This document shows positions 3,888 to 16,655 of a DNA stretch of 16,655 nucleotides, in pieces (within the stretch, counting starts at the first letter, position 1; each line of letters starts with the position of its first letter). The stretch is from a virus. Taxonomy: Duplodnaviria > Heunggongvirae > Uroviricota > Caudoviricetes. A model generated the notes under the pieces. That model saw nothing but the letters and a program-made list of their open reading frames with translations, searched no databases and had not been told where the DNA came from. The position numbers and the translations under genes were made by a program. The stretch lies in IMG/VR virus record IMGVR_UViG_2698536647_000004, positions 1-16,655 of that record, one strand, 5' to 3'.

Positions 3888-5450
3888 ATGAAAATGACAA
3901 GTATTCAACAACGTGCAGAGCTTCATCGTCAAATCTGGCAAATTGCTAACGATGTCAGGGGTTCGGTCGATGGATGGGATTTTAAGCAATACGTTCTGGG
4001 CGCACTTTTCTACCGTTTTATCAGCGAAAATTTTTCCAGCTATATTGAAGCCGGTGATGACAGTATCTGTTATGCGAAACTGGATGACAGCGTAATTACT
4101 GATGACATTAAAGACGATGCCATCAAAACTAAAGGCTACTTCATCTACCCCAGTCAGCTTTTCTGCAACGTAGCGGCGAAAGCAAATACCAATGACAGAC
4201 TGAATGCAGATTTAAACAGCATCTTCGTTGCTATCGAAAGTTCTGCTTACGGTTATCCTTCAGAAGCTGACATCAAAGGTTTGTTTGCTGATTTCGATAC
4301 CACCAGTAACCGCCTGGGTAACACCGTTAAGGATAAAAATGCCCGCCTGGCTGCGGTTCTGAAAGGGGTTGAAGGGTTAAAACTTGGTGACTTCAACGAA
4401 CATCAGATTGACCTGTTCGGTGATGCCTATGAGTTCCTGATCTCTAACTATGCGGCAAATGCCGGTAAGTCAGGCGGCGAGTTCTTTACACCGCAGCACG
4501 TCTCTAAGCTGATTGCACAACTGGCTATGCACGGGCAGACCAACGTTAACAAAATCTACGACCCGGCAGCGGGTTCCGGCTCACTGTTGTTGCAGGCGAA
4601 AAAACAGTTTGATAACCACATCATCGAAGAAGGCTTTTTCGGTCAGGAAATCAACCATACGACCTATAACCTGGCGCGTATGAACATGTTTTTGCACAAT
4701 ATCAACTACGACAAGTTTGATATCAAGCTGGGTAATACACTGACTGAGCCGCACTTCAGAGATGAAAAACCGTTTGATGCCATCGTTTCTAACCCGCCGT
4801 ATTCGGTGAAATGGATTGGCAGCGATGACCCGACGCTGATTAACGATGAACGTTTTGCCCCGGCTGGCGTTCTGGCCCCCAAATCCAAAGCTGACTTTGC
4901 GTTTGTATTACATGCGCTGAACTATCTTTCGGCCAAAGGTCGCGCTGCGATTGTCTGCTTCCCGGGCATTTTTTACCGTGGCGGCGCGGAGCAGAAAATC
5001 CGTCAGTATCTGGTCGATAATAACTATGTCGAAACCGTAATTTCACTGGCTCCGAACCTGTTCTTTGGCACCACCATTGCCGTAAACATTCTGGTTCTGT
5101 CTAAACATAAAACGGATACCAACGTTCAGTTTATTGACGCCAGCGAACTGTTCAAAAAAGAGACTAACAACAATATCCTGACCGATGCCCATATCGAACA
5201 GATTATGCAGGTATTTGCCAGCAAGGAAGATGTTGCTCATCTGGCGAAATCTGTTGCGTTTGAGACTGTTGTCGCGAATGACTATAACCTGTCGGTGAGC
5301 AGCTATGTGGAAGCGAAAGATACTCGCGAAATTATCGATATCGCTGAGCTGAATGCTGAGCTGAAAACCACGGTCAGCAAAATCGACCAGTTGCGCAAAG
5401 ATATTGATGCGATTGTGGCTGAAATTGAAGGCTGCGAGGTGCAGAAATGA
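3888..5450 (+). CDS. hsdM: Type I restriction-modification N6-adenine DNA methyltransferase subunit HsdM (type IC, EcoR124-like)
   Basis: 520 aa with the AdoMet motif [10 protein letters not shown] and the catalytic NPPY motif (SNPPYS). It overlaps hsdS by 4 nt (ATGA). Confidence 0.97.
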
Positions 5451-6652
5451 GCGAGATGAGTTATCTGGAAAAATTGCTGGATGGGGTTGAGGTTGAGTGG
5501 AAGACACTTGGGCAAACTTGCAAAATTGAAACAGGAAAGCTTAATGCGAATGCGGCTGTTGATGATGGAGAGTATATGTTCTTCACGACAGCCAAAGAGA
5601 CAAGCAAAATTGATAAATTCCGCTGGGATACAGAGGCATTGCTGATTGCAGGCAATGCGAATGTTGGTGAGGTGAAGCATTACATCGGCAAGTTTGAGGC
5701 TTATCAGCGCACCTATGTTCTGACAAATTTCGACGAAAATGTAAGTGTTAGATTTTTGTATTTTGTGCTTAGCCATAGCCTGAAGAAATATCTCGAGGAA
5801 AGAACAAATAGCGCGGCAATGACATATATCGTGCTATCAACCTTAGAGAATTTCCCTATCCCCATCCCCTGCCCGGATAATCCGGAAAAATCCCTTGCCA
5901 TCCAGTCTGAAATCGTTCGGATTCTGGATAAATTTACTGCACTTACCGCTGAGCTTACCGCTGAGCTTAACATGCGTAAAAAACAGTACAACTACTATCG
6001 CGACCAGTTGTTGAGTTTTAAAGATGGTGAGGTTGAGTGGAAGACTTTGGGGGAAATTGGAGATTTTACATATGGATATGCAGCCAAAGCCATGGATTCA
6101 GGAGATGCCCGTTTCGTGAGAATTACTGACATAAATAAAGACGGGAAGCTATCGAAAGAAAACCCAATGTACGTTGAATTAAATGAGGAAAATGAGAAAT
6201 ATACCTTAGACAAAAATGATTTACTCATGGCAAGAACTGGGGCAACCTTTGGTAAAACAATGATTTTTGAAGAAGATTATCCAGCAGTATACGCTGGTTT
6301 TTTAATAAAGTTGAACCTAAATAAAACGATTATTAATGCCAAATATTACTGGCACTTTGCACAAAGTGATTTTTTTTGGGAACAGGCTAATAAATTAGTA
6401 TCTGGTGGTGGGCAACCACAGTTTAATGCTAATGCACTGAAACAAGTCAGAGTACCTATTCCATACCCATCTCACCCTCAAAAATCTTTAGACGAACAGG
6501 GGCGTATTGTGGATATTCTGGATAAGTTTGATGCAATCGCAGCTTCCATCACCGAAGGTCTTCCGCGTGAAATCGAGTTGCGCCAGAAACAATACGAATA
6601 CTACCGTGATTTACTGTTCAGTTTCCCGAAACCTGAAACTGCCAGTAATTAA
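5447..6652 (+). CDS. hsdS: Type I restriction-modification specificity subunit HsdS with two target-recognition domains
   Basis: 401 aa. Conserved central repeat region ([26 protein letters not shown]) and the matching C-terminal conserved region ([18 protein letters not shown]). The N-terminal motif VEVEWKTLG is repeated at the start of TRD2 (GEVEWKTLG). Confidence 0.95.
5944..5967 (+). repeat. Perfect 2 x 12-bp tandem repeat (TACCGCTGAGCT) encoding TAEL-TAEL in the HsdS central spacer region
   Basis: Direct read: 5944-5955 equals 5956-5967, preceded by a degenerate copy encoding TAL. In type IC systems the copy number of this repeat sets the spacer length of the recognition site (two copies in EcoR124I, three in EcoR124II, as I recall). 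Confidence 0.85.
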
Positions 6653-6679
6653 TTGATCATTGCTACCGATCGGACCACC

Positions 6680-6745
6680 TTAACACCCGGTCAGTATATA
6701 GACTATTTTTTACGCGCCGGAAGTCACCATTACCCCCCTTCCGGC
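6680..6745 (+). promoter_or_regulatory. Candidate hsdR promoter (TTAACA 6680-6685, TATATA 6695-6700 region) and a leader stem-loop (GCCGGAAG 6716-6723 / CTTCCGGC 6738-6745)
   Basis: Type IC hsdR is known to have its own promoter separate from hsdMS. The hexamers are weak; the 8-bp inverted repeat with a 14-nt loop is read directly from the sequence. Confidence 0.35.
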
Positions 6746-6773
6746 CCTTGCCAGACGGCACAAAGGATGCGCT

Positions 6774-9700
6774 ATGACTCATCAGACACACACCATTGCT
6801 GAATCCAATAACTTTATCGTTCTTGATAAGTACATCAAAGCTGAGCCAACAGGCGACAGCTACCAGAGCGAATCGGACCTGGAACGTGAACTGATTCAGG
6901 ACCTGCAAAATCAGGGTTATGAATTTATTTCCGTAAAATCACAGTCGGCAATGCTGTCCAATGTTCGGGAACAGCTTCAGAGCCTCAATGGTGTGATGTT
7001 TAATGACAGCGAGTGGCGGCGCTTCACGGAGCAGTATCTGGACAACCCCAGCGATGGTATTCTGGATAAAACCCGTAAAATCCATATCGACTATATCTGC
7101 GACTTTATTTTTGATGACGGGCGACTTGAGAACATCTATTTGATAGATAAAAAGAATCTCATGCGCAATAAGGTGCAGATTATCCAGCAGTTTGAACAGA
7201 CGGGTTCTCATGCTAACCGTTATGACGTCACGATCCTGGTTAATGGTTTACCGCTGGTGCAAATCGAACTAAAAAAACGCGGGGTGGCGATTCGTGAGGC
7301 TTTCAACCAGATACATCGTTACAGTAAAGAGAGTTTTAACAGCGAAAATTCCCTGTTTAAGTATCTGCAACTGTTTGTCATTTCTAACGGCACCGATACC
7401 CGTTATTTTGCCAACACGACAAAGCGCGATAAAAACAGTTTTGACTTCACCATGAATTGGGCGAAATCAGACAACACGCTGATTAAAGACCTCAAAGACT
7501 TTACCGCTACCTTTTTCCAGAAACATACTCTGCTGAATGTTCTGGTGAACTACAGCGTTTTTGACAGTAGTCAGACGCTACTGGTGATGCGACCGTACCA
7601 GATTGCCGCCACCGAGCGCATTCTGTGGAAAATTAAGAGTTCCTTTACAGCGAAGAACTGGTCAAAACCGGAAAGCGGTGGGTATATCTGGCACACTACC
7701 GGTTCTGGTAAAACCCTCACCAGCTTTAAAGCCGCGCGTCTGGCAACAGAGCTGGACTTTATTGATAAAGTCTTCTTTGTGGTCGACAGGAAAGACCTCG
7801 ATTACCAGACCATGAAGGAATATCAGCGTTTTTCGCCAGACAGCGTCAACGGCTCGGAAAATACCGCAGGCCTTAAACGAAATCTGGATAAGGACGATAA
7901 CAAAATTATCGTCACTACTATTCAGAAACTCAATAACCTGATGAAAGCAGAAAGCGACCTGCCTGTATATAATCAGCAAGTGGTGTTTATATTTGATGAA
8001 TGCCACCGCAGCCAGTTTGGAGAAGCGCAGAAAAACCTGAAGAAGAAATTCAAACGCTATTATCAGTTTGGTTTTACCGGCACACCTATTTTCCCGGAAA
8101 ACGCCTTAGGCTCAGAAACGACCGCCAGCGTATTTGGTCGTGAATTGCATTCGTATGTAATTACCGATGCGATTCGTGATGAAAAAGTGCTCAAATTCAA
8201 GGTGGACTACAACGATGTGCGGCCACAGTTTAAGTCTTTAGAGACAGAAACTGACGAGAAAAAACTAAGTGCGGCTGAAAATCAGCAGGCGTTTCTTCAT
8301 CCCATGCGTATACAGGAAATTACGCAATATATTCTGAATAACTTCCGCCAGAAGACGCACCGTACTTTCCCTGGCGCAAAAGGTTTTAATGCTATGTTGG
8401 CAGTGAGCAGCGTGGATGCTGCAAAAGCCTATTACGCGGCGTTTAAACGGTTACAAGAGGAAGCCGCTAATAAATCTGCAACTTATAAACCGCTGCGTGT
8501 TGCGACAATCTTCTCCTTTGCCGCTAATGAAGAACAAAATGCCATTGGTGAAATTTCCGATGAAACTTTTGATACCAGCGCAATGGACAGCAGTGCTAAA
8601 GAGTTTCTTGACGCTGCAATTCGTGAGTATAACAGCTATTTTAAAACTAACTTCAGCACCGACGGTAACGGTTTTCAGAACTACTATCGCGATTTAGCCC
8701 AACGGGTTAAAAATCAGGATATCGATCTGTTAATTGTCGTTGGGATGTTTTTAACCGGCTTCGACGCTCCAACATTGAACACGCTATTCGTCGATAAAAA
8801 CTTGCGTTTTCACGGCCTGATGCAGGCATTTTCCCGCACCAACCGCATTTATAACGCCACTAAAACCTTCGGTAACATTGTCACTTTTCGGGATCTGGAA
8901 CGCTCAACCATTGATGCCATAACGCTGTTTGGTGATAAAAATACCAAAAATGTGGTGTTAGAAAAGAGTTATGCAGAGTATATGGAAGGTTTTACTGATG
9001 CTGCCACCGGTGAAGCCAAACGCGGCTTTATGGCAGTAGTTTCAGAACTGGAACAACGGTTCCCTGACCCTGCCAGTATTGAAAGTGAAAAAGAGAAGAA
9101 AGACTTCGTTAAACTGTTTGGCGAATACCTGCGTGCCGAGAACATCCTGCAAAACTATGATGAATTTGCCACGCTAAAAGCCCTGCAACAAATCGATCTT
9201 AGCGATCCTGTTGCGGTAGAAAAATTCAAAGCAGAACATTATGTGGATGATGAAAAGTTCGCTGAATTGCAAACAATTCGTCTCCCTGCTGAACGCAAGA
9301 TTCAGGATTATCGTTCTGCCTATAACGATATTCGCGACTGGCAGCGCCGTGAGAAAGAAGCTGAGAAAAAAGAGAAATCAACCACTGACTGGGATGACGT
9401 GGTTTTTGAGGTCGATTTGCTGAAGTCTCAGGAAATAAACCTGGATTATATCCTTGGACTGATTTTCGAACACAACAGACAAAATAAAGGCAAGGGCGAA
9501 ATGATCGAAGAGGTCAAACGCTTAATTCGTTCAAGCCTGGGGAACCGGGCGAAAGAGGGCCTGATGGTCGATTTTATTCAGCAAACGAACCTGGATGATT
9601 TACCAGACAAAGCCAGTATCATTGAGGCATTCTTTACGTTTGCTCAACGCGAACAGCAACGTGAAGCAGAAGCATTGATAAAAGAAGAAAATCTCAATGA

Positions 9701-9890
9701 AGATGCAGCAAAACGCTATATTCGCACGTCTTTAAAACGCGAATACGCCACCGAAAATGGCACAGAATTAAACGAAACATTACCAAAACTTAGTCCGTTG
9801 AATCCGCAATATAAAACGAAAAAACAGGCAGTTTTCCAGAAAATCGTCTCGTTTATTGAGAAGTTTAAAGGCGTAGGCGGAAAAATATAG
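6774..9890 (+). CDS. hsdR: Type I restriction enzyme R subunit HsdR (type IC; same 1038-aa length I recall for EcoR124I HsdR)
   Basis: PD-(D/E)xK-type nuclease motif in the N-terminal domain ([19 protein letters not shown]), helicase Walker A TGSGKT and a DECH box ([10 protein letters not shown]). RBS AAGGATG before the ATG at 6774. Confidence 0.97.
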
Positions 9891-9903
9891 CCCAATTCGT
9901 GTT

Positions 9904-9937
9904 TTTCTTGCGGGTTCTTAATTAAACCCGCAAGAGC
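9904..9937. other. Stable stem-loop (stem of at least 9 bp, CTTGCGGGT / ACCCGCAAG) just after the hsdR stop; function unknown
   Basis: Direct read. The T-run is on the 5' side of the stem on the plus strand, so it is not a canonical intrinsic terminator in either orientation. Confidence 0.5.
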
Positions 9938-9969
9938 TCGTGGGGTTCCAAATGGCTAATATACTCCCC

Positions 9970-10056
9970 TTACCCATGCGCGACGATGCCGCCAAAAGTG
10001 ATAGAGAACAGCCAGAAATAGATCGCGGCCATAATGATTTTGAATGCCGTGTTCAT
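9970..10056 (-). CDS. Candidate small hydrophobic protein (28 aa, MNTAFKIIMAAIYFWLFSITFGGIVAHG)
   Basis: ATG at 10056 with AGGAG 8 nt upstream. The whole peptide looks like a single transmembrane helix. Not in the supplied ORF track (too short). It lies between a C1-operator-like site and the end of hsdR. Confidence 0.3.
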   Translation of the reverse strand: MNTAFKIIMAAIYFWLFSITFGGIVAHG

Positions 10057-10084
10057 ATTTTCAGCTCCTGTGATTGATTGGATA

Positions 10085-10115
10085 CATGCCGCGCCTTGCG
10101 GCATGTTTTTATTTT
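10085..10115 (+). terminator. Rho-independent terminator, plus orientation
   Basis: GC-rich 8-bp stem CATGCCGC (10085-10092) / GCGGCATG (10098-10105) with loop GCCTT, followed by TTTTTATTTT. It is the first canonical terminator downstream of hsdR. Confidence 0.7.
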
Positions 10116-10138
10116 CACTTTCTCTGTTTTAAAAATCA

Positions 10139-10155
10139 AGATTTATTAGAGCAAT
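10139..10155 (-). promoter_or_regulatory. C1-repressor-operator-like 17-mer ATTGCTCTAATAAATCT (16/17 to the recalled consensus)
   Basis: Read on the minus strand immediately after the stop of the HAD-like gene. The weak promoter-like hexamers TTGATT and GAAAAT follow it. Confidence 0.6.
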
Positions 10156-10661
10156 TATTGTTGATGAAGAAGCGCATTTTCGTACTCTCTGACCATTAAC
10201 GTAAGCACGCCGTGATGCCTGAAAACACGCGCTACTTCAATCTTATCTTCCAGCGCGAACGCAATTTTACTTAGACCAATTTTCTTAAGGAGATCAATCT
10301 TTGCTGGACCATCATTTCTGTCATCGGTGGCAGGACGCATAGATAGCAAAGGCTCAGCCCCATTTGTTACGTGCTTACGCAACCAGGCTCGTGTTTTATC
10401 CCTTGCGATCTCACAGCGCCCGGTTACAAACCAGACCGTGTAAACGTTAAATAACTGGCGCACCATATCAATAACTGGAGTGATGGGAGTATCGGTGTCA
10501 CAGGCGAGATTAAACTCGTTCCAGTCCTTTGTTACTGCACCTTTACCTGGTGGCGGAAGCAAATGCAGTCTGTCTTCAGTTGCCTCTGATATTGTTCCAT
10601 CAATATCGACTATGACGATATACGGACGTTCCTGGTGTGCGTGTTTATTGAAAATACTCAA
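10155..10661 (-). CDS. HAD-superfamily phosphatase-like protein (168 aa)
   Basis: TTG start at 10661 preceded by a strong AGGAGG (4-5 nt spacer) and an in-frame upstream stop. HAD motif I DIDGT (VIVDIDGTIS). Possibly equivalent to a P1 phosphatase gene, but I cannot confirm that from memory. Confidence 0.6.
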   Translation of the reverse strand: MSIFNKHAHQERPYIVIVDIDGTISEATEDRLHLLPPPGKGAVTKDWNEFNLACDTDTPITPVIDMVRQLFNVYTVWFVTGRCEIARDKTRAWLRKHVTNGAEPLLSMRPATDDRNDGPAKIDLLKKIGLSKIAFALEDKIEVARVFRHHGVLTLMVREYENALLHQQ

Positions 10662-10732
10662 ATGCCCTCCTCATTGGACGAAAAAATGCTGGTGGGCGCA
10701 CTCCACCAACATTAAAAGTGACACTGTAACTA

Positions 10733-11995
10733 TCAGCGAACGTAAATAGTGCCGCCGTTCTCTTTTTCCCATGCATCGCTACGTGCATAGCAAACATCGA
10801 GAAGTCTTCTTGCCGCTGTTTCCTCTAAACCCAATTCGACAACCAACTGTTCATGACGGCGGGTAACCACATCAAACAACGTATGCAGCCCTTTAGTTGC
10901 CAGTTCATCAATGAATTCCGGTTCGAACGGTAGCTCTGCATCTGCCAACATAACCTCTTGCGCCCACTCGACACGGCGGACCAGTTCCGGGCGGCGGCTT
11001 TCCATCTCTTTACAGATCAATTCATGGAAGAACTCTACCCAACCTTCCGGCTGGAACTCGCGGAAAATGGCCAACGGCTGGAAGTTTGGCATCAACCATT
11101 CGTTGATACGGATATCAATGGCATAGCCCATGTCGCAGCAGAACTGATAAGCAAAGTCCAGCTTAGAAACGATATAAGGACGCTCGTTATTGAACTCTTT
11201 AGGCGATGAGATCCCATAAGCCAGGAGGCGCGGGAAGAATGAGATTTGCCCTAACGTCGGATGAAGTTTGCTTGCAGGGAAACGGCGCTCAGTAATGCCA
11301 TACATTTCCTTCTTGAGCGTCGCAAATTTGGCATTCTCATTAACCAGCGCGGTAACCTCTGCTTTTTTATTAGCAAATGCCACGCGCGCTTCGCTTGCAT
11401 CTTTAATAGTTTTTTTGAGCTGTTGGTTAAGGTCGGCGACCTGTTTACGCAGTTCCTGCCGCTCGCTTTTAGCTTTGTTATAGCGTTTCTCAAGGTTAAA
11501 AGGATCAAGTTTCATGATCTCTTTATATTGAGATTTTAGCGTTGAAATCTGTGAGTTCCGCAGTTCAACCATCGCGGTCATTTCATTGAGTTTTGTTTCC
11601 AGCTCAATGCTTATACGTTCGGCATTATCAGCACGCTGGTTGGCGTCATGCGTCGCATCGTCGATCGCATCCTGTTGCTGGCGTTTCAAATGTTCAATTT
11701 GCAGCTGAAGCTCTTCAATTTCTTTACCCTTCAGACCGAGATCCAACTGCATATTTTCAGCTGCATCTACCAGGGAGTTATGGCTATCAGCTTCTGCGTT
11801 ATAAACATCAATAAGCTGTGCGTGAAGCATCTCCGCTGACTGAACCGCATTATCAAAAAAACGTGCTGTGAGGTCATCACAACTAACGCGGCGTTGCGCG
11901 GCCCGGATGTTCTGGATAATGGCCGGGATACCGGCATTCAGGACATCAGGGATAGATACATTTTCGATTGATTGGTTTTGTGCTGAAGTGCTCAT
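10733..11995 (-). CDS. Hypothetical 420-aa protein: long N-terminal coiled-coil region plus a C-terminal domain of unknown function
   Basis: ATG at 11995. Residues about 90-230 are heptad-rich (EIEELQLQIEHLKRQQQ...ELRKQVADLNQQLKK). I do not recognise any catalytic motif in the C-terminal 190 aa. Confidence 0.7.
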   Translation of the reverse strand: MSTSAQNQSIENVSIPDVLNAGIPAIIQNIRAAQRRVSCDDLTARFFDNAVQSAEMLHAQLIDVYNAEADSHNSLVDAAENMQLDLGLKGKEIEELQLQIEHLKRQQQDAIDDATHDANQRADNAERISIELETKLNEMTAMVELRNSQISTLKSQYKEIMKLDPFNLEKRYNKAKSERQELRKQVADLNQQLKKTIKDASEARVAFANKKAEVTALVNENAKFATLKKEMYGITERRFPASKLHPTLGQISFFPRLLAYGISSPKEFNNERPYIVSKLDFAYQFCCDMGYAIDIRINEWLMPNFQPLAIFREFQPEGWVEFFHELICKEMESRRPELVRRVEWAQEVMLADAELPFEPEFIDELATKGLHTLFDVVTRRHEQLVVELGLEETAARRLLDVCYARSDAWEKENGGTIYVR

Positions 11996-11996
11996 T

Positions 11997-12215
11997 TCAA
12001 AGTTCCGTATTAGCTTGTGCTTCGGTCATTTTTCCTAAGTATGAAGGAGGAAGGACTACGCAATTTGTATCCAGTCCCTCACCTATGGCAGCCTGTAAAA
12101 TTCTGGCTAAGGTGAGTCTCTTGTTGCGATACCTGGTGATGACATGCCTGATACCGCCGGTCGGCGTAACAAAGGCGATCAGCCAGTAGTGATATTTCCG
12201 TCGGAATGGCCACAT
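11997..12215 (-). CDS. Hypothetical small protein (72 aa if started at the ATG at 12215), stop 1 nt before the ATG of the 420-aa gene
   Basis: The ORF track gives 11997..12272, but that 5' extension overlaps the minus-strand terminator. The ATG at 12215 has AGGGTG upstream. The tight spacing to the next gene suggests coupling. Confidence 0.4.
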   Translation of the reverse strand: MWPFRRKYHYWLIAFVTPTGGIRHVITRYRNKRLTLARILQAAIGEGLDTNCVVLPPSYLGKMTEAQANTEL

Positions 12216-12229
12216 AGTGCACCCTGTAG

Positions 12230-12246
12230 ATTGCTCTAATAAAAAA
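12230..12246 (+). promoter_or_regulatory. C1-repressor-operator-like 17-mer ATTGCTCTAATAAAAAA (14/17), plus orientation
   Basis: Direct read. It forms an inverted pair with the site at 12279-12295. Confidence 0.5.
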
Positions 12247-12267
12247 CGTGATGAGTGTACATCACGT
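12237..12267 (-). terminator. Rho-independent terminator, minus orientation, ending the glycosyltransferase-like operon
   Basis: Stem ACGTGATG (12246-12253) / CATCACGT (12260-12267) with a 6-nt loop. On the minus strand the stem is followed by TTTTTTATT. Confidence 0.7.
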
Positions 12268-12278
12268 TTCAAAAATAT

Positions 12279-12295
12279 GGAATTATTAGAGCAAT
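12279..12295 (-). promoter_or_regulatory. C1-repressor-operator-like 17-mer ATTGCTCTAATAATTCC (14/17), minus orientation
   Basis: Read on the minus strand directly after the stop of the glycosyltransferase-like gene. The following 30 nt closely resemble the sequence after the site at 10139-10155. Confidence 0.55.
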
Positions 12296-12296
12296 A

Positions 12297-12998
12297 TTAT
12301 TCTGATTCTCGCTCAAAAAACGAGCTGATAAGGGGAAGCCAATCCTCTGACACTTCGCGAGGTCGCGGTTTGCCGTGGAAAAAGATTATTCGGCAGTCTT
12401 TTGGTAATGCCCCATTCCCCCTGGAGTAACGCGCGCTCGCATATTTCGAACCAGGTTCCACAACATCGGCCTTGTAACTTACAAACCATCCTGGATACAG
12501 ATCCTGAAATGCTGGTGTATCATCGCCCATAACCTTTCGTAAGAACCCCTGGTCACCCCAGCACTCAGTAGTGACACAACGAGAAATCCAACCTTCCGGA
12601 TCTTGCCAGAATGAACTCCAGATATGCGCTTTAACACTATTTGGTATCCACAGGGCACCGCTGCCACGATATTGTGGATGGTAAAAATCCCTAAGCATGG
12701 TGAAGCTGGTTGGTGGATGCTCTAGGATTGGGCGTATATCACCGGCAATAACCGTGTCCAAATCCAGATAGAACAGATCATCGGTTATATCCGGTCGGAA
12801 CAACTCGATTTTCGCCCACCAGCCACGGCACTTTTGCCACTGGTTGATCAATGGGACAACTTTGACGCCAGGTACATGTAAACGCTTCAGGTCTGTCAGG
12901 CAAATAATTTCATAGCCTTTTGGCAGTTGATTAACCAGCCACTGCACATCGGAAGCGTTATAGTCACCACCAGAGCGAAAAACTAAAGCAATCTTCAT
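12297..12998 (-). CDS. Hypothetical protein (233 aa), possibly a glycosyltransferase (DxD-like LDLD motif)
   Basis: ATG at 12998 overlaps the stop of the upstream phosphatase gene (ATGA). The N-terminus [13 protein letters not shown] and [12 protein letters not shown] suggest a nucleotide-sugar transferase fold, but this is weak. Confidence 0.45.
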
Positions 12999-13687
12999 GC
13001 TGCACCATCACCTTTCACTTTCATCAATGTCAGGTTTCCGCAAAATACGGCACCAGTGTCGATATACTGCTGATTCCAGAATGTCTTCGGGCTTTTCACC
13101 GGAGTGTGACCAAAGATAAAACGATCTGCGCCCGAAATTTCGCCACCAATATCATCCATCGAATCACTGATACGCTCGCGCGCCCAGACAACGTTGAAAA
13201 GCGGCACCTCCTTACCGAATTGGTATTCATTATCCGGATAGTCGGCATGGGCTATAACGATAGTTTCTTGCCCGGTGTTCAACTCAATGATATAGGGCAG
13301 ACGCTTTACCAGCTCCACCAGCGCCCAGGCTAATATTTCCTGATCAGTGTCCAGCATGAAGAACCATTGTCCGCCATTCATTAGCCAGTTATTCACGTTG
13401 CCATCTGGACTTAACGCATCAATCATCAGCCGCTCATGGTTCCCCATCACTGCCCTGAACCAGGGCATCTGCAATAGTTCCAGACATTCGACATTTTCAG
13501 TACCGCGATCGATAAGGTCGCCGACCGATATCAGTAAATCCTGCGCCGGGTCAAAATCCACACGATGGAGTTCGGACATCAGTCTGGTGTAGCAACCATG
13601 CAGATCACCAACAACCCAGACATTCCTGTATTTGGTACCGTCGATACGGTGATAAATTGTGGGTGCCATCATGTATTCTTCAGCCAT
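12995..13687 (-). CDS. Ser/Thr protein phosphatase of the lambda PPase (calcineurin-like metallophosphoesterase) family; likely P1 ppp-like
   Basis: Motifs GDLHGC, GDLIDRG, GNHE and a C-terminal GHTP. Strongly resembles the lambda phosphatase (nin region ORF221) from memory. The true start may be the ATG at 13669, which overlaps the upstream stop by 1 nt. Confidence 0.85.
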
Positions 13688-14295
13688 TCTTTAAGAGTCA
13701 TCTGTGGAATGCCTCCCATTTTCCCGCATGAAACAACGTCAATCTGTTCACGCGCAGACTGGAATAACAAAGGCAGGTGACTTAGATTTTTTGGCGTGCC
13801 GCCGGAGTGAACGCGTGGTTCTTGTGTAGCGTCAACGCCCACCAGGGCGACATGTTTGAATCCGATATGGAAAGCCAGGTTCAGAGCGCCATATGCACTA
13901 TTGCCGCTGGCAATTTCATTCTCATCTTCGCAAAGTCCGAAATGTGCGGACCAACGCCACGCCCACCACTCGGGAGAATTCGTATTTTTTGGCTCCATGC
14001 CACGTTCAGCCACACGACGGAAGCACAGAACGCCGTCTCTGACTTCACGTTCTTTAACATCGGGTAGTGCCATGCAATAACAAACACCACGGCGACGGCG
14101 GCCACGACCAACGCGCCGCATATTGTCTGGCGATGGATCAAGTGTGAAAAAATAAGAAGCGCGGTTCAGCCAGTCGATGGCCCCATTGACCGCTATAATC
14201 GGCACTCCGCGCGGCGCAACAAAGTTTGCGGCGCTTGGGCCACTGCCGACGATAATAACGCGATCACTGCCTCTAAATTTATTCTTGGGAAACAT
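13669..14295 (-). CDS. MptE-like / DUF115-like protein, paralog A (208 aa)
   Basis: Motifs VIIVGSGPS ... IIAVNGAID ... [12 protein letters not shown] ... VALVGVDAT resemble the Rossmann-like core of PF01973 (MptE/Maf family), by recall. It is a paralog of the next gene. Confidence 0.45.
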
Positions 14296-14855
14296 TGAAT
14301 TGCACAGCTCCTACTTGCATTCAAAATATGTAAATCTGCGTGTTTTTTGCGGGTATCCAGGAACTGCTGTTGCCATTTTGAAATAGACACCTGCGTTGGA
14401 TTCCGTAGGGCTTGAGGGTGTGCTCCATGCCAATGAAGGCCGTTTTGCAGAGAACAGTCATAGCCGACTAATACAACTACTTCAGCCCCTGATTCAGCCG
14501 CCAGACTGATAGTCTGCGCGCCGCTATTAACCCCTTCAGCCGGTCCACAATATCGCCTGTACTCCAACGAAAATGATTTCGCCGCCGCCAGGTTGGCTGT
14601 CACTTTGCGGAATCTCCCTCCCGGTATGGTGGATCCGTATTGCTTCCACCATGACAAATCACCGGCGTATAAGGCATAAATGTCATCGAACATCTGCCAG
14701 GAATTGTTAACCGCGATGATTGAACAGCCAGTTTTTTCTATAGCAGCACAGTCCTCACGAGTGAGTGACGGACCGCTACCGACACAAAAAACAGTCCTAG
14801 TCGCCCTGGGTGGTATGTTCATTCTCAGCTGCAAATTCAGCCTCCAGGCGAGCAT
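14193..14855 (-). CDS. MptE-like / DUF115-like protein, paralog B (about 208-220 aa)
   Basis: Motifs VFCVGSGPS ... IIAVNNSWQ ... SGAQTISLAA ... VVLVGYDCS. Start uncertain: ATG 14855, TTG 14834 (GGAGG 6 nt upstream) or ATG 14822. The 3' end overlaps paralog A by 103 nt in another frame. Confidence 0.45.
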   Translation of the reverse strand: MLAWRLNLQLRMNIPPRATRTVFCVGSGPSLTREDCAAIEKTGCSIIAVNNSWQMFDDIYALYAGDLSWWKQYGSTIPGGRFRKVTANLAAAKSFSLEYRRYCGPAEGVNSGAQTISLAAESGAEVVVLVGYDCSLQNGLHWHGAHPQALRNPTQVSISKWQQQFLDTRKKHADLHILNASRSCAIQCFPRINLEAVIALLSSAVAQAPQTLLRRAECRL

Positions 14856-15018: not shown

Positions 15019-15381
15019 TTAAGCAGCATACAACCACTTGTCGCCGTTCAATACATGCTCAATAGCCTCACCCTTTTTAAGGCTTATGTATTCCAGGATG
15101 GCGGTTATCGCTTGTTCTGCACCATACGCAAGAACGACGTAGTAACCTTCCTCTCTAAGCCTGCGCATCCAGGCGATCTGCTCTTTCGTCGGGGCTTTAC
15201 CATTTGGTTCTTTAAGCTCAATTCGCATGCCGTGATAAATACCGCATGCTTTATCGAGACTCATGTCCGGATAACCTTTTTTCTGCCCTTCAGCCTTCAT
15301 TTTCCCGGCGGTTGCTTTTGAACGTTTCCCTCTGAAGTGGTTTACTGAATTTGGCCACCTGAACAGAGGTGATATGCTCAC
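15019..15381 (-). pseudogene. VRR-NUC domain nuclease gene, 5' end replaced by the IS911 terminus (native part 15019..15332)
   Basis: Core KGYPDMSL ... IELKEPNGKAPTKEQIAWMRRLREEGYYVVLAYG fits the VRR-NUC pattern (G.PD ... E.K ... Q). The first 16 codons of the ORF are encoded by IS911 inverted-repeat sequence, and the usual N-terminal portion of the domain is missing. Confidence 0.65.
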
Positions 15382-15667
15382 CTCAGAACAACACAGGTGC
15401 CATAATGAAAAAAAGAAATTTCAGCGCAGAGTTTAAACGCGAATCCGCTCAACTGGTCGTTGACCAGAATTACACCGTGGCAGATGCAGCCAGCGCTATG
15501 GATGTCGGCCTTTCCACAATGACGCGATGGGTGAAACAATTACGTGATGAGCGGCAGGGAAAAACACCAAAAGCCTCCCCCATTACCCCGGAACAAATTG
15601 AAATCCGTGAGCTCAGGAAAAAGCTACAACGTATTGAAATGGAAAATGAAATATTAAAAAAGGCTAC
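15333..15667 (+). mobile_element. IS911 (IS3 family) left-end fragment: left inverted repeat plus a truncated orfA (ATG 15405), interrupted by IS30
   Basis: Begins TGAAGTGG...; orf[89 protein letters not shown] matches IS911 OrfA (InsN) from memory. The frameshift heptamer A AAA AAG is at about 15655-15661, and IS30 sequence starts at 15668. Confidence 0.85.
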
Positions 15668-16655
15668 TGTAGATTCAATCTGTCAATGCAACACCCCTTT
15701 CAATTATCTCTTTCGGTGTTTTGAACTTCAGTGTCTTTCTCGGTCTGTTGTTTAGCTGAGCAGCAACCAGATCTAGTTCATGTTGAGTATATTGGGCAAG
15801 ACATGTCTTTTTAGGAAAGTACTGCCGAATTAGCCCATTTGTATTCTCATTTGTTCCCCGCTGCCAAGGACTCTGAGGATCGCAGAAGTAAACTTTAACG
15901 CCGGTGCTGACAGTAAATTCTAGATGTCTGGCCAGTTCCATTCCTCTGTCCCATGTCAGTGATTTTCTGAGTTCTGACGGTAAACTCAGGAATTTGTCGG
16001 TAAGAGCCTGATTTACTGAGACAGAATCTTTGCCCCTGAGTCTAAGGATGATCGTATAACGTGATTTTCGGTCTACAAGTGTGTCTATATGAGAGTTTTT
16101 TGTACCTGAGACTAAATCGCCCTCCCAATGCCCCAGAGAGCGTCTGTTATCGATATTTCGGGAACGTTCGTGAATTGGTGTTCCGTTCACTATGTTAATC
16201 GTACCTCTTTCGCCTTTGCGGGTATGACGCCTGCCATGGCGAAGGCTATGCGACCGTCGCAGATGCTGTATATTCAGGTGGTGTAGCGCTTCACGGCTAC
16301 GAAAGTACAGCGTTTTATAAATTGTCTCAGGTGATATTCGCAGCGTTTTTTGACGTGGTTTTGTTCGCCTTAACCATCCTGATATTTGCTCTGGAGACCA
16401 TTTCATCTCCAGCTTTTCCAGAACAAGCTTTCGCAATGGTAAATTTTGATCCAGTAAGCACGGTTTTGGCCTTTTCGCCATTCTGTTGGCTCGGTTATTA
16501 GCATCAACAGCTTTGTAATAGCGTCTGCCCCGATTACGCTGAACTTCACGTGAGATCGTCGAAGGACTGCGATTCAGCGCAGTAGCTATCGCACGAATGC
16601 TCATTTTGGCTGACAAACCAGCTCGTATCTCCTCGCGCTCAGACAGTGTCAGGTG
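15668..16655 (-). mobile_element. IS30, partial (right end and most of the transposase; continues beyond the window end)
   Basis: The terminus TGTAGATTCAATCTGTCAATGCAACA begins at 15668. The transposase frame is open from 15675 to the window edge (...[30 protein letters not shown]...) and matches IS30 InsI from memory. Confidence 0.9.
15675..16655 (-). CDS. IS30 transposase, C-terminal approx 326 codons (5' end outside window)
   Basis: Stop TGA at 15677-15675 inside the inverted repeat. A DDE-type catalytic region is present. The ORF track begins at an internal TTG, but the frame stays open to 16655. Confidence 0.9.

Follow-up and report, generated by a model that had tools for sequence, protein, structure and literature searches.

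A known P1-type pmgR–pmgS–pap cluster beside a type I restriction cassette, with a tentative DNA-handling role for PmgS and PmgR

Three co-directional genes lying next to the type I restriction gene hsdR raise the question of whether they make up an undescribed phage system or belong to one already known. They occupy positions 10155-12215 of a 16,655-nt stretch of tailed-phage DNA (the window in what follows), and a sequence-only reading had taken them for a cryptic operon and for its leading candidate for an undescribed system. Comparison with phage P1 points elsewhere: the trio is, almost certainly, the pmgR–pmgS–pap cluster of a P1-type (IncY) phage-plasmid, both in its identity and in its regulation. 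As pmgR–pmgS–pap is already annotated in P1, there is no new system here, and the candidate was a false lead in which genes of a textbook phage stand beside a swapped-in restriction cassette. The best overall explanation is, in our estimate (probability about 0.85), a known P1-type pmgR–pmgS–pap cluster controlled by C1, with the more tentative roles proposed below.

Nucleotide identity reaches 97-98% over 2.5 kb to P1, P7, SJ46, RCS47 and others, with 97.8% for the window against P1 itself (GenBank AF234172, 82152-84309), and the proteins are near-identical to those of P1 (PmgR 100%, PmgS 99.5%, Pap 96.4%; Table 1). Order and orientation are as in P1, with pmgQ upstream and the operator Op88 downstream, and both loci have in common the gene lengths, the start codons, the one-base pmgR/pmgS junction, the operators, the intergenic hairpins and a small downstream ORF. 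The orthologous unit of phage P7 is the 'sht operon' (shtA, shtB, pap; Op(sht a/b), Op(hea)), which is 98.0% identical at the nucleotide level and differs from the window only in the names of its genes and in the functions asserted for them (sheath structure, sheath contraction). These identities bear out the earlier proposal of a P1-like element, and the genes are not cryptic, being named pmgR, pmgS and pap in P1 and shtA, shtB and pap in P7. Orthology to characterised P1 genes, which the sequence-only reading had itself named as an outcome that would speak against a new system, holds for pmgR, experimentally essential in P1. The gene layout described previously was confirmed: all three genes are on the minus strand, base 11996 is the sole spacer between the pmgR TGA stop (11997-11999) and the pmgS ATG, and pap, HAD-type by Pfam, starts with a TTG located 4 nt after an AGGAGG.

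Table 1. Features of the pmgR–pmgS–pap locus, in window coordinates.
Feature	Position	Strand	Remarks
C1 operator Op86a (OpmgRa)	12279-12295	-	3 mismatches to consensus; P1 annotation
Predicted sigma-70 promoter PpmgR	-35 12289-12294, -10 12266-12271		positions transferred from P1
Hairpin, 11-bp stem then T6	12243-12270	-	between Op86a and Op86b; fold -27.3 kcal/mol, z = -6.7
C1 operator Op86b (OpmgRb)	12230-12246	+	3 mismatches; P1 and P7 annotation; inverted relative to Op86a
pmgR (shtA in P7)	11997-12215	-	72 aa; 72/72 identical to P1 PmgR; phrog_3177
pmgS (shtB in P7)	10733-11995	-	420 aa; 418/420 identical to P1 PmgS
Intrinsic-terminator-like hairpin and T-run	10685-10713	-	in the 71-nt pmgS-pap spacer; terminator scan and fold
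pap	10155-10661	-	168 aa; 162/168 identical to P1 Pap
C1 operator Op88 (OpmgT in P1, Op(hea) in P7)	10139-10155	-	1 mismatch; P1 and P7 annotation
Unannotated hydrophobic ORF	9970-10056	-	28 aa; downstream of Op88; protein identical in P1 and P7

Searching the window with the P1 C1-operator consensus ATTGCTCTAATAAATTT, a 17-bp asymmetric site, returned three matches in all, where 0.09 would be expected by chance and none of 200 shuffles reached three. All three coincide with operator positions annotated in P1 and P7 and are the operators of those phages. The sequence of Op86a is annotated in P1 as one that 'controls expression of pmgR and pmgS', and the window carries 2 substitutions with respect to P1 in this region. 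Op86a overlaps the -35 element of PpmgR, a promoter that the P1 annotation places inside this operator, and the predicted -10 element reads TGAAAC in the window versus TAAAAC in P1. Together, the operator matches and the placement of PpmgR support the repressor control that had been suspected. At the other end, Op88 overlaps the pap stop codon and is annotated in P1 for the promoters of the next unit, P1pmgT/P2pmgT. Operator-like sites are therefore present on both sides, as described, but the operon is not bracketed by them, because Op88 serves the promoters of the next unit. By transfer from P1, where this is established, the C1 repressor bound to Op86a and Op86b would block the sigma-70 promoter PpmgR in the prophage, and induction or infection would lead to early, C1-controlled expression and not to late, Lpa-dependent expression. 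The P1 annotation lists only a sigma-70 promoter at the cluster, and a search of 10100-12300 for the 9-bp Lpa late-promoter -22 box, allowing up to one mismatch and based on three P1 example boxes only, found none.

The hairpin between the two upstream operators probably terminates the ppp-pmgQ unit that lies upstream, and the predicted PpmgR start would sit within its 5' arm. Of 80 P1-like loci, 79 gave a match to this inter-operator region, and 64 have it exactly as in P1. A further observation that is new here is a conserved terminator-like hairpin between pmgS and pap. The spacer was recovered in 68 of the 80 P1-like loci by a regular expression (12 gave no match), and in all 68 the stem is the same and the T-run is kept, with changes confined to the loop; the stem is a perfect 10-bp one in P1, whereas in the window it contains one G-U pair. 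Because this hairpin parts pmgS from pap, co-transcription of all three genes is not assured. A promoter scan showed no separate promoter near pap, and the ribosome-binding site follows the hairpin at a distance of only some 25 nt; placed behind a terminator, pap would probably be expressed by read-through.

Pap matches the Pfam family HAD_PNKP (PF25109; E 5e-12, 46.5 bits against a cut-off of 27.6) as well as PHROG polynucleotide kinase families, it carries the nucleophile motif DxDxT as DIDGT at residues 19-23, and its best sequence match among solved structures is the phosphatase domain of Pnkp1 (4xrp). Profiles and motif point to a stand-alone HAD phosphatase of the polynucleotide 3'-phosphatase type, an enzyme that may serve in the end-healing of nucleic acids. 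A bifunctional enzyme such as T4 Pnkp was rejected, since Pap has 168 aa and only the phosphatase part of the profiles is matched. In P1, the pap knockout is viable, CRISPRi also scores the gene as non-essential, and the LC-MS/MS list of virion proteins does not include Pap; the window's Pap would likewise be dispensable for plaque formation.

No family had been recognised for the 420-aa protein, and this still stands: neither Pfam (above threshold) nor NCBIfam nor PADLOC holds a family for PmgS, the same three collections hold none for PmgR, and the Pfam and PADLOC searches that had been suggested for both proteins revealed no defence profile. PmgS shows profile noise at the coiled-coil level only, with TPR, LPP, SMC, LmuB and JetC. 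An ATPase of the SMC/Rad50/LmuB/JetC type was rejected for PmgS, since the alignments, at 10-19 bits and well short of the cut-offs, are confined to the coiled coil and the GxxxxGK[ST] motif is missing. Structure prediction, likewise suggested, was productive for the C-terminal part and left the rest of the protein unmatched. The predicted layout comprises an N-terminal helix, a helical coiled coil (42-232), an alpha/beta domain (~240-350) and a C-terminal (HhH)2-like domain (~355-412) that displays the five-helix fold; the model of the C-terminal part has a pLDDT of 91.7. Foldseek matches of the full-length model in the PDB were limited to the C-terminal HhH part, and neither the coiled coil nor the alpha/beta domain at 240-350 had a match in PDB or BFVD. 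The new description suggested by the model is of a coiled coil followed by an alpha/beta domain that matches nothing and, at the C-terminus, a Rad51-N-like (HhH)2 domain. Distant PmgS homologs show a canonical GIG hairpin, one of them with a weak-level match to Pfam HHH_5; the P1 and window proteins carry a degenerate second hairpin, with ELGLEE in place of the homologs' KGIGxK, and are not matched by any Pfam HhH model. The fold alone is no proof of DNA binding by PmgS, because (HhH)2/SAM-like folds also mediate protein-protein contacts.

Conservation of the trio as a unit in P1-like elements, which had been put forward for checking, is near-universal, as pmgR was found in 80 of 80 P1-like viral contigs and pap in 75 of 77. 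Beyond this group, we collected 39 distant loci with PmgS homologs, on contigs mostly of ~85-95 kb, and 37 of them have a match to the PmgR profile immediately upstream in the same orientation, whereas none has pap (0/39). The pair pmgR–pmgS is thereby conserved across distant phages and pap is not, which is a new observation. The order that recurs in these loci is pmgM, pmgR, pmgS and then lpa, where PmgM is VRR-NUC/Holliday-junction-resolvase-like; neighbours of the PmgS homolog in other distant loci include SSB, C5 methylase and Tad2-like proteins. Also new is the presence of PmgS homologs inside the recombination module of Aeromonas lambdoid prophages: on 33 contigs of this type the homolog lies in a module of exonuclease, RecT, p362, PmgS-like, Dam and RdgC genes (RdgC in 31/33, exonuclease in 25/33), and homologs are present on Aeromonas chromosomes. 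PmgR was not found in the Aeromonas prophages that carry a PmgS homolog, and the PmgR-PmgS pairing is therefore not obligatory. Among 29 distinct distant PmgR homologs, 24 have a membrane-anchor-like tail, which P1 PmgR lacks.

Homology to P1 breaks just after the stop of the 28-aa ORF, leaving this ORF as the final feature shared with P1 ahead of the hsd cassette; from there P1 continues with pmgT through humD, whereas the window continues with hsdM-hsdS-hsdR. This ORF is present in 70 of 72 P1-like loci and is named 'membrane protein' in phage SJ46. The neighbour downstream of the trio is pmgT in 51 of 72 P1-like contigs and hsdR in 15, so that the hsdMSR cassette occurs in 15/72 and the trio is near-universal. 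In P1-like phage-plasmids the segment from pmgT to humD has been described as variable (PMC9603915), and hsdM-hsdS-hsdR is a cargo cassette swapped into it. Because the trio is present with either pmgT or hsdR downstream, its adjacency to hsdR is incidental. A phd-doc toxin-antitoxin pair also lies near the trio.

These data bear on the two functions that had been linked to the restriction genes. If the trio were a module for anti-restriction or host takeover, functionally linked to the type I restriction-modification genes next to it, this would agree with the position beside hsdR, with early, C1-controlled expression, with the Tad2-like anti-defence genes near distant homologs and with the resemblance of Pap to the phosphatase half of the T4-type polynucleotide kinase-phosphatases, which repair nuclease-cut tRNA. 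P1 deletions of pmgS and pap, however, show 'normal restriction' on EcoA, EcoB and EcoK (type I) hosts, the trio is equally present with either neighbour, the hsd cassette sits in a segment already known to vary and Pap has no kinase domain; we consider such a module very unlikely. A functional link of the trio to hsd was dropped on the normal restriction of the deletions and the neighbour-independent presence. That the prophage carries the trio for accessory defence or abortive infection might be suspected from the nearby restriction system and phd-doc pair and from the weak PADLOC matches of PmgS to LmuB and JetC (E 1.4e-4 to 0.04, 10-18 bits). Yet these cover the coiled coil only, PmgS lacks the ATPase motif, PmgR and Pap have no matches, and none of the three proteins has a significant defence profile match in PADLOC-DB. 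In addition, C1 represses the unit in the lysogen, just where a defence encoded by the prophage would have to be expressed, and the phage itself does not reproduce without pmgR, all of which leaves this reading close to refuted.

The alternative that PmgR and PmgS are true morphogenetic factors, as named, with PmgS an accessory assembly or sheath-related protein, deserves more weight, although we find it rather doubtful. Knockout of pmgR in P1 (fewer than 1e2 PFU/mL, rescued in trans) shows the gene to be essential and complementable, tails and incomplete heads being made (PMC9024508); no virions are formed, as in the pmgC deletion. CRISPRi knockdown scores pmgR as non-essential, in conflict with the knockout, and its authors count pmgR as a missed essential gene. 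The existing labels concur with morphogenesis: phrog_1660 (PmgS) is labelled 'head and packaging', the PHROG/RefSeq label is 'PmgS-like head morphogenesis', and the notes for P7 give 'sheath structure or assembly' for shtA and 'sheath contraction' for shtB. Furthermore, pmgR and pmgS are among the 21 extremely conserved genes of P1-like phage-plasmids. On the other hand, pmgS is non-essential in P1 by knockout and by CRISPRi, its deletion plating normally; neither PmgR nor PmgS was among the proteins detected by LC-MS/MS in the P1 virion; the promoter is a C1-controlled sigma-70 one, with no Lpa late-promoter box found; and a P1 mutant in the packaging gene pacA gives a similar picture of proheads and tails. 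Moreover, lambdoid prophages with virion genes not related to those of P1 have PmgS homologs within their recombination modules, and the one domain that can be recognised in PmgS has an (HhH)2 fold, of a kind that binds DNA or protein. Context and fold suggest that 'head morphogenesis' has been passed on as an annotation that lacks support.

By transfer from P1, PmgR would be required for complete, infectious particles and PmgS would be dispensable for plaque formation. Regarding what they do, a DNA-handling role for PmgS is favoured over a structural one on account of the (HhH)2 fold, the GIG hairpin of distant homologs, the conserved pair, the resolvase-like PmgM, the recombination-module context in Aeromonas, the SSB, C5 methylase and Tad2-like neighbours elsewhere and the negative search for a late-promoter box. 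The degenerate hairpin of P1 PmgS, the morphogenesis labels and the Aeromonas prophages without PmgR count against it, and we put forward this role for PmgS and PmgR tentatively; an early lytic, DNA-related function of the trio is plausible. We propose that pmgR–pmgS may form a real conserved functional pair, to which pap would be a lineage-specific add-on. PmgS would most likely be a dimeric coiled-coil nucleic-acid-binding protein and not a virion part, its C-terminal (HhH)2 domain acting on replicating or recombining phage DNA, and PmgR would be its small partner; the tails and incomplete heads of the pmgR deletion could then reflect a failure to fill or finish heads. A more specific and less probable version is that pmgR–pmgS is a conserved two-protein DNA-handling module of P1-like phages that acts with the VRR-NUC nuclease PmgM and makes replicating or recombining phage DNA packageable, in which case the 'head morphogenesis' label would be wrong. 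The small partner in that version, PmgR, would be membrane-anchored in most relatives. The membrane-anchor-like tail is left unexplained by every part of the DNA-handling model.

If that version were true, the PmgS family would be an unrecognised accessory part of exonuclease/RecT/RdgC modules in lambdoid prophages. Both PmgS (phrog_1660) and PmgR (phrog_3177) are kept throughout a wide clade of phages and phage-plasmids of 85-95 kb. A role in DNA metabolism or packaging would matter for the use of P1 in transduction and delivery and for annotating the many P1-like resistance plasmids.

With respect to known systems, Pap has in common with the T4 Pnkp type and Pnkp1 the HAD fold family and the DxDxT motif, and, unlike polynucleotide kinase-phosphatases, it has no kinase (P-loop) or ligase-interacting part. 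The C-terminal domain of PmgS is likened to (HhH)2/SAM-like domains, namely the N-terminal domain of Rad51, RadA and RAD51C, the RNAP alpha-CTD and the AR repeats of NusA, although PmgS has no recombinase or polymerase core. Protein p16.7 of phage phi29, which is early and non-essential, is anchored in the membrane, contains a coiled coil, binds DNA and organises replication of the phage DNA. It bears no sequence or fold relationship to PmgR or PmgS, its elements are split over two proteins in the pair, and P1 PmgR has no anchor; by analogy only, the distant pairs of a PmgR with a transmembrane tail and a PmgS with coiled coil and HhH domain would combine the same three elements.

The sequence-only reading had proposed an operator-controlled cryptic operon beside hsdR that would form an undescribed system. 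Its three open reading frames, the one-base junction, the TTG start with AGGAGG and the operator-like sites were all found as described, and the observation is confirmed, since the ORFs are present and the P1 C1-operator consensus has exactly three matches across the 16.6-kb window, as compared to 0.09 expected by chance. Novelty did not survive: the genes are the annotated pmgR-pmgS-pap of P1. A megablast search (9900-12500) returned 19 phage records, all P1-like (P1, P7, SJ46, RCS47, phi456 and others), with 97-98% identity over the full stretch and with PmgR, PmgS and Pap as gene labels. The P1 reference record names the trio pmgR, pmgS and pap, and the P7 record groups shtA, shtB and pap as the 'sht operon'. 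Identity to the P1 proteins is 72/72 for PmgR, 418/420 for PmgS and 162/168 for Pap, and the regulatory region carries two substitutions relative to P1. In the P1 record, OpmgRa and OpmgRb flank the predicted sigma-70 promoter PpmgR, with the note 'controls expression of pmgR and pmgS', and the third operator, OpmgT (Op88), belongs to the promoters of pmgT, the gene that follows. Both the identity and the regulation of the trio are settled: in P1 it is a known early unit, repressed by C1 and already annotated. As sequence the finding holds; as biology it is already known.

Features of the pmgR-pmgS-pap region and its surroundings (window positions)
Feature	Position	Strand	Remarks
hsdM	3888-5450	plus	
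hsdS	5447-6652	plus	
hsdR	6774-9890	plus	
28-aa hydrophobic ORF	9970-10056	minus	MNTAFKIIMAAIYFWLFSITFGGIVAHG; just downstream of Op88
Op88 (OpmgT)	10139-10155	minus	P1 C1-operator consensus match
pap	10155-10661	minus	168 aa; TTG start, AGGAGG 4 nt before; 71-nt spacer from pmgS
Hairpin then T-run	10685-10713	minus	pmgS-pap spacer
pmgS	10733-11995	minus	420 aa; ATG one base past pmgR stop
pmgR	11997-12215	minus	72 aa
Op86b (OpmgRb)	12230-12246	plus	P1 C1-operator consensus match
Hairpin + T6	12243-12270	minus	between inverted Op86a and Op86b; fold z = -6.7
PpmgR predicted -10 hexamer	12266-12271	minus	TGAAAC; TAAAAC in P1
Op86a (OpmgRa)	12279-12295	minus	P1 C1-operator consensus match
PmgQ, Ppp, PmgP, PmgO unit	12297-14855	minus	upstream, C1-controlled
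Truncated pmgM	15019-16616 region		120 aa; 192 aa in P1
HTH_Tnp_1 ORF	15369-15755	plus	IS-type gene
rve-integrase transposase	15675-16616	minus	IS-type gene

Co-transcription of the three genes as a single operon is not assured. The one-base junction suggests translational coupling of pmgR and pmgS. A terminator-like hairpin lies ahead of pap. The pmgS-pap spacer was recovered in 68 of 80 P1-like loci, with the stem invariant in 68/68 and a variable loop, the pattern that would be expected of a functional terminator. As this hairpin precedes pap and the promoter scan found no promoter-like site near the gene, pap is probably expressed via partial read-through. In this regard, the P1 annotation credits Op86a with the control of pmgR and pmgS only. 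The strong hairpin between the inverted operators is a probable terminator of the upstream ppp-pmgQ unit. PpmgR transcripts would escape it, since their predicted start would lie inside its 5' arm. The G in the predicted -10 hexamer, which alters its normally critical second position, is shared by only 1 of 80 other P1-like loci.

In the upstream unit, PmgQ is a PHROG 'glycosyltransferase' and Ppp a lambda-type Ser/Thr phosphatase (Metallophos), while PmgP and PmgO give weak MptE-like matches, RefSeq labelling PmgO homologs 'alpha-2,3-sialyltransferase'. The four 'putative morphogenetic' proteins look like enzymes, not virion parts. P1 homology ends near 15332, with IS-type genes beyond.

The type I hsdM-hsdS-hsdR cassette (3888-9890, plus strand) stands in place of the P1 pmgT-humD segment, between phd-doc and the 28-aa ORF/pap. 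The same arrangement occurs in phage vB_EcoM-673R5; the cassette with its flanks is 100% identical in IncY plasmid pCE1537-E, and at least 80% of this query is covered in 560 plasmid records (PLSDB). In the P1 GenBank notes, these flanks are already described as homologous to the hsd loci of EcoDXXI and R124/3. Of the P1-like viral contigs examined, all 80 carry pmgR (80/80) and 75/77 carry pap; the downstream neighbour is pmgT in 51/72 and hsdR in 15/72. In a survey of 77 P1-like phage-plasmids (PMC9603915), pmgR and pmgS belong to a set of 21 extremely conserved genes, and the stretch from pmgT to humD counts as one of eight regions of high variability. Since the trio is nearly always present whichever its neighbour and this region is known to vary, hsdR adjacency is cargo exchange without functional coupling. 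The 28-aa ORF, found in 70/72 P1-like contigs, marks the exact left edge of the variable region: right past its stop codon, P1 homology ends. Its product, identical in P1 and P7 and unannotated in the P1 record, is possibly a C1-controlled small membrane peptide.

Among 39 distant P1-like loci, on viral contigs mostly of ~85-95 kb, a PmgR-profile match lies directly upstream of the PmgS homolog, on the same strand, in 37, and pap is found in none (0/39). The recurrent order is pmgM, pmgR, pmgS and then lpa; PmgM is VRR-NUC/Holliday-junction-resolvase-like, and further neighbours encode SSB, C5 DNA methylase, Tad2-like proteins and TerB. We favour the view that pmgR-pmgS would be a conserved functional pair. 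Most distinct distant PmgR homologs (24/29) are 96-118 aa long and carry a hydrophobic, transmembrane-like tail at their end (L090-L122, e.g. L096:5520-5816); this tail is absent from P1 PmgR and from the relatives closest to it (72-75 aa). A separate PmgS branch occurs on Aeromonas chromosomes, within lambdoid prophages whose gene order is exonuclease (DUF3799), RecT, a 362-aa protein, PmgS homolog, Dam, RdgC and integrase; PmgR was not found in these loci. Of 33 viral contigs of this type, 31 carry RdgC, 30 the 362-aa protein and 25 the exonuclease. The 362-aa protein (L123:8862-9950; L127-L159), assigned to phrog_1376 and without Pfam family, directly precedes the PmgS homolog in 30/33, between exonuclease/RecT and Dam/RdgC, which gives this recombination module a second uncharacterised protein.

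PmgS itself has no family in Pfam, NCBIfam or PADLOC. In its full-length AF2 model (pLDDT 71.5), an N-terminal helix is followed by a coiled coil of ~190 residues, interrupted at a conserved KLDP/EPEKL motif, and the C-terminal part is globular; residues 225-420, re-modelled with a 31-sequence alignment, reach pLDDT 91.7. The alpha/beta domain ahead of the C-terminal domain has no match in PDB or BFVD. The helix-hairpin-helix hairpin is degenerate in P1 PmgS and canonical (GIG) in distant homologs, with Pfam HHH_5 in one. An exhaustive profile search gave 123 clusters of PmgS-like proteins at 50% identity, many of the hits being shorter fragments; full-length members have ~340-560 aa and a common architecture.

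For PmgS we tentatively prefer a function linked to DNA, with a probability of roughly 0.3-0.35, to a structural one, because its promoter would be an early, sigma-70, C1-controlled one, a scan of 10100-12300 with three P1 -22 boxes (up to one mismatch) found no late-promoter box, PmgS is missing from the virion protein list, its knockout is viable, an (HhH)2-like domain is predicted, nuclease, SSB and methylase genes adjoin, and homologs belong to the recombination modules of phages whose virions are unrelated. In the in-frame deletions of Gonzales et al. 2022 (PMC9024508), loss of pmgR left tails and incomplete heads and gave <1e2 PFU/mL, a defect rescued by pmgR in trans. This phenotype would fit a defect in DNA supply or packaging, since it resembles that of the pacA packaging mutant (proheads and tails; PMC9024508). 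A genome-wide CRISPRi screen missed pmgR and also scored pmgS and pap as non-essential (PMC10695390). The main rival, the published morphogenetic reading of PmgR and PmgS, is in our view about as probable; it leaves the transmembrane-like tail of distant PmgR homologs unexplained, as does the DNA-handling reading.

Readings of the trio as a defence, abortive-infection or anti-restriction module are poorly supported. Phages deleted for pmgS or pap are infectious and show 'normal restriction' on EcoA, EcoB and EcoK hosts (PMC9024508). The lack of a PADLOC family for PmgS weighs against defence, and the prevalence of pmgT as neighbour against any hsd-linked function.

Many distant PmgS homologs end in Ala-Ala (KAA, EAA, RAA, VAA, CAA, NAA; P0058, P0064, P0071, P0072, P0074, P0092, P0104, P0106 and P0118 in alignment A2), recalling ssrA-type ClpXP degrons, whereas P1 PmgS ends in IYVR. 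As for Pap, a Pfam HAD_PNKP match above cut-off, the DIDGT nucleophile motif and matches to the Pnkp1 phosphatase domain and to polynucleotide-kinase families of PHROG identify it, at the sequence level, as a HAD phosphatase of the type found in polynucleotide kinase-phosphatases; it has no kinase domain.
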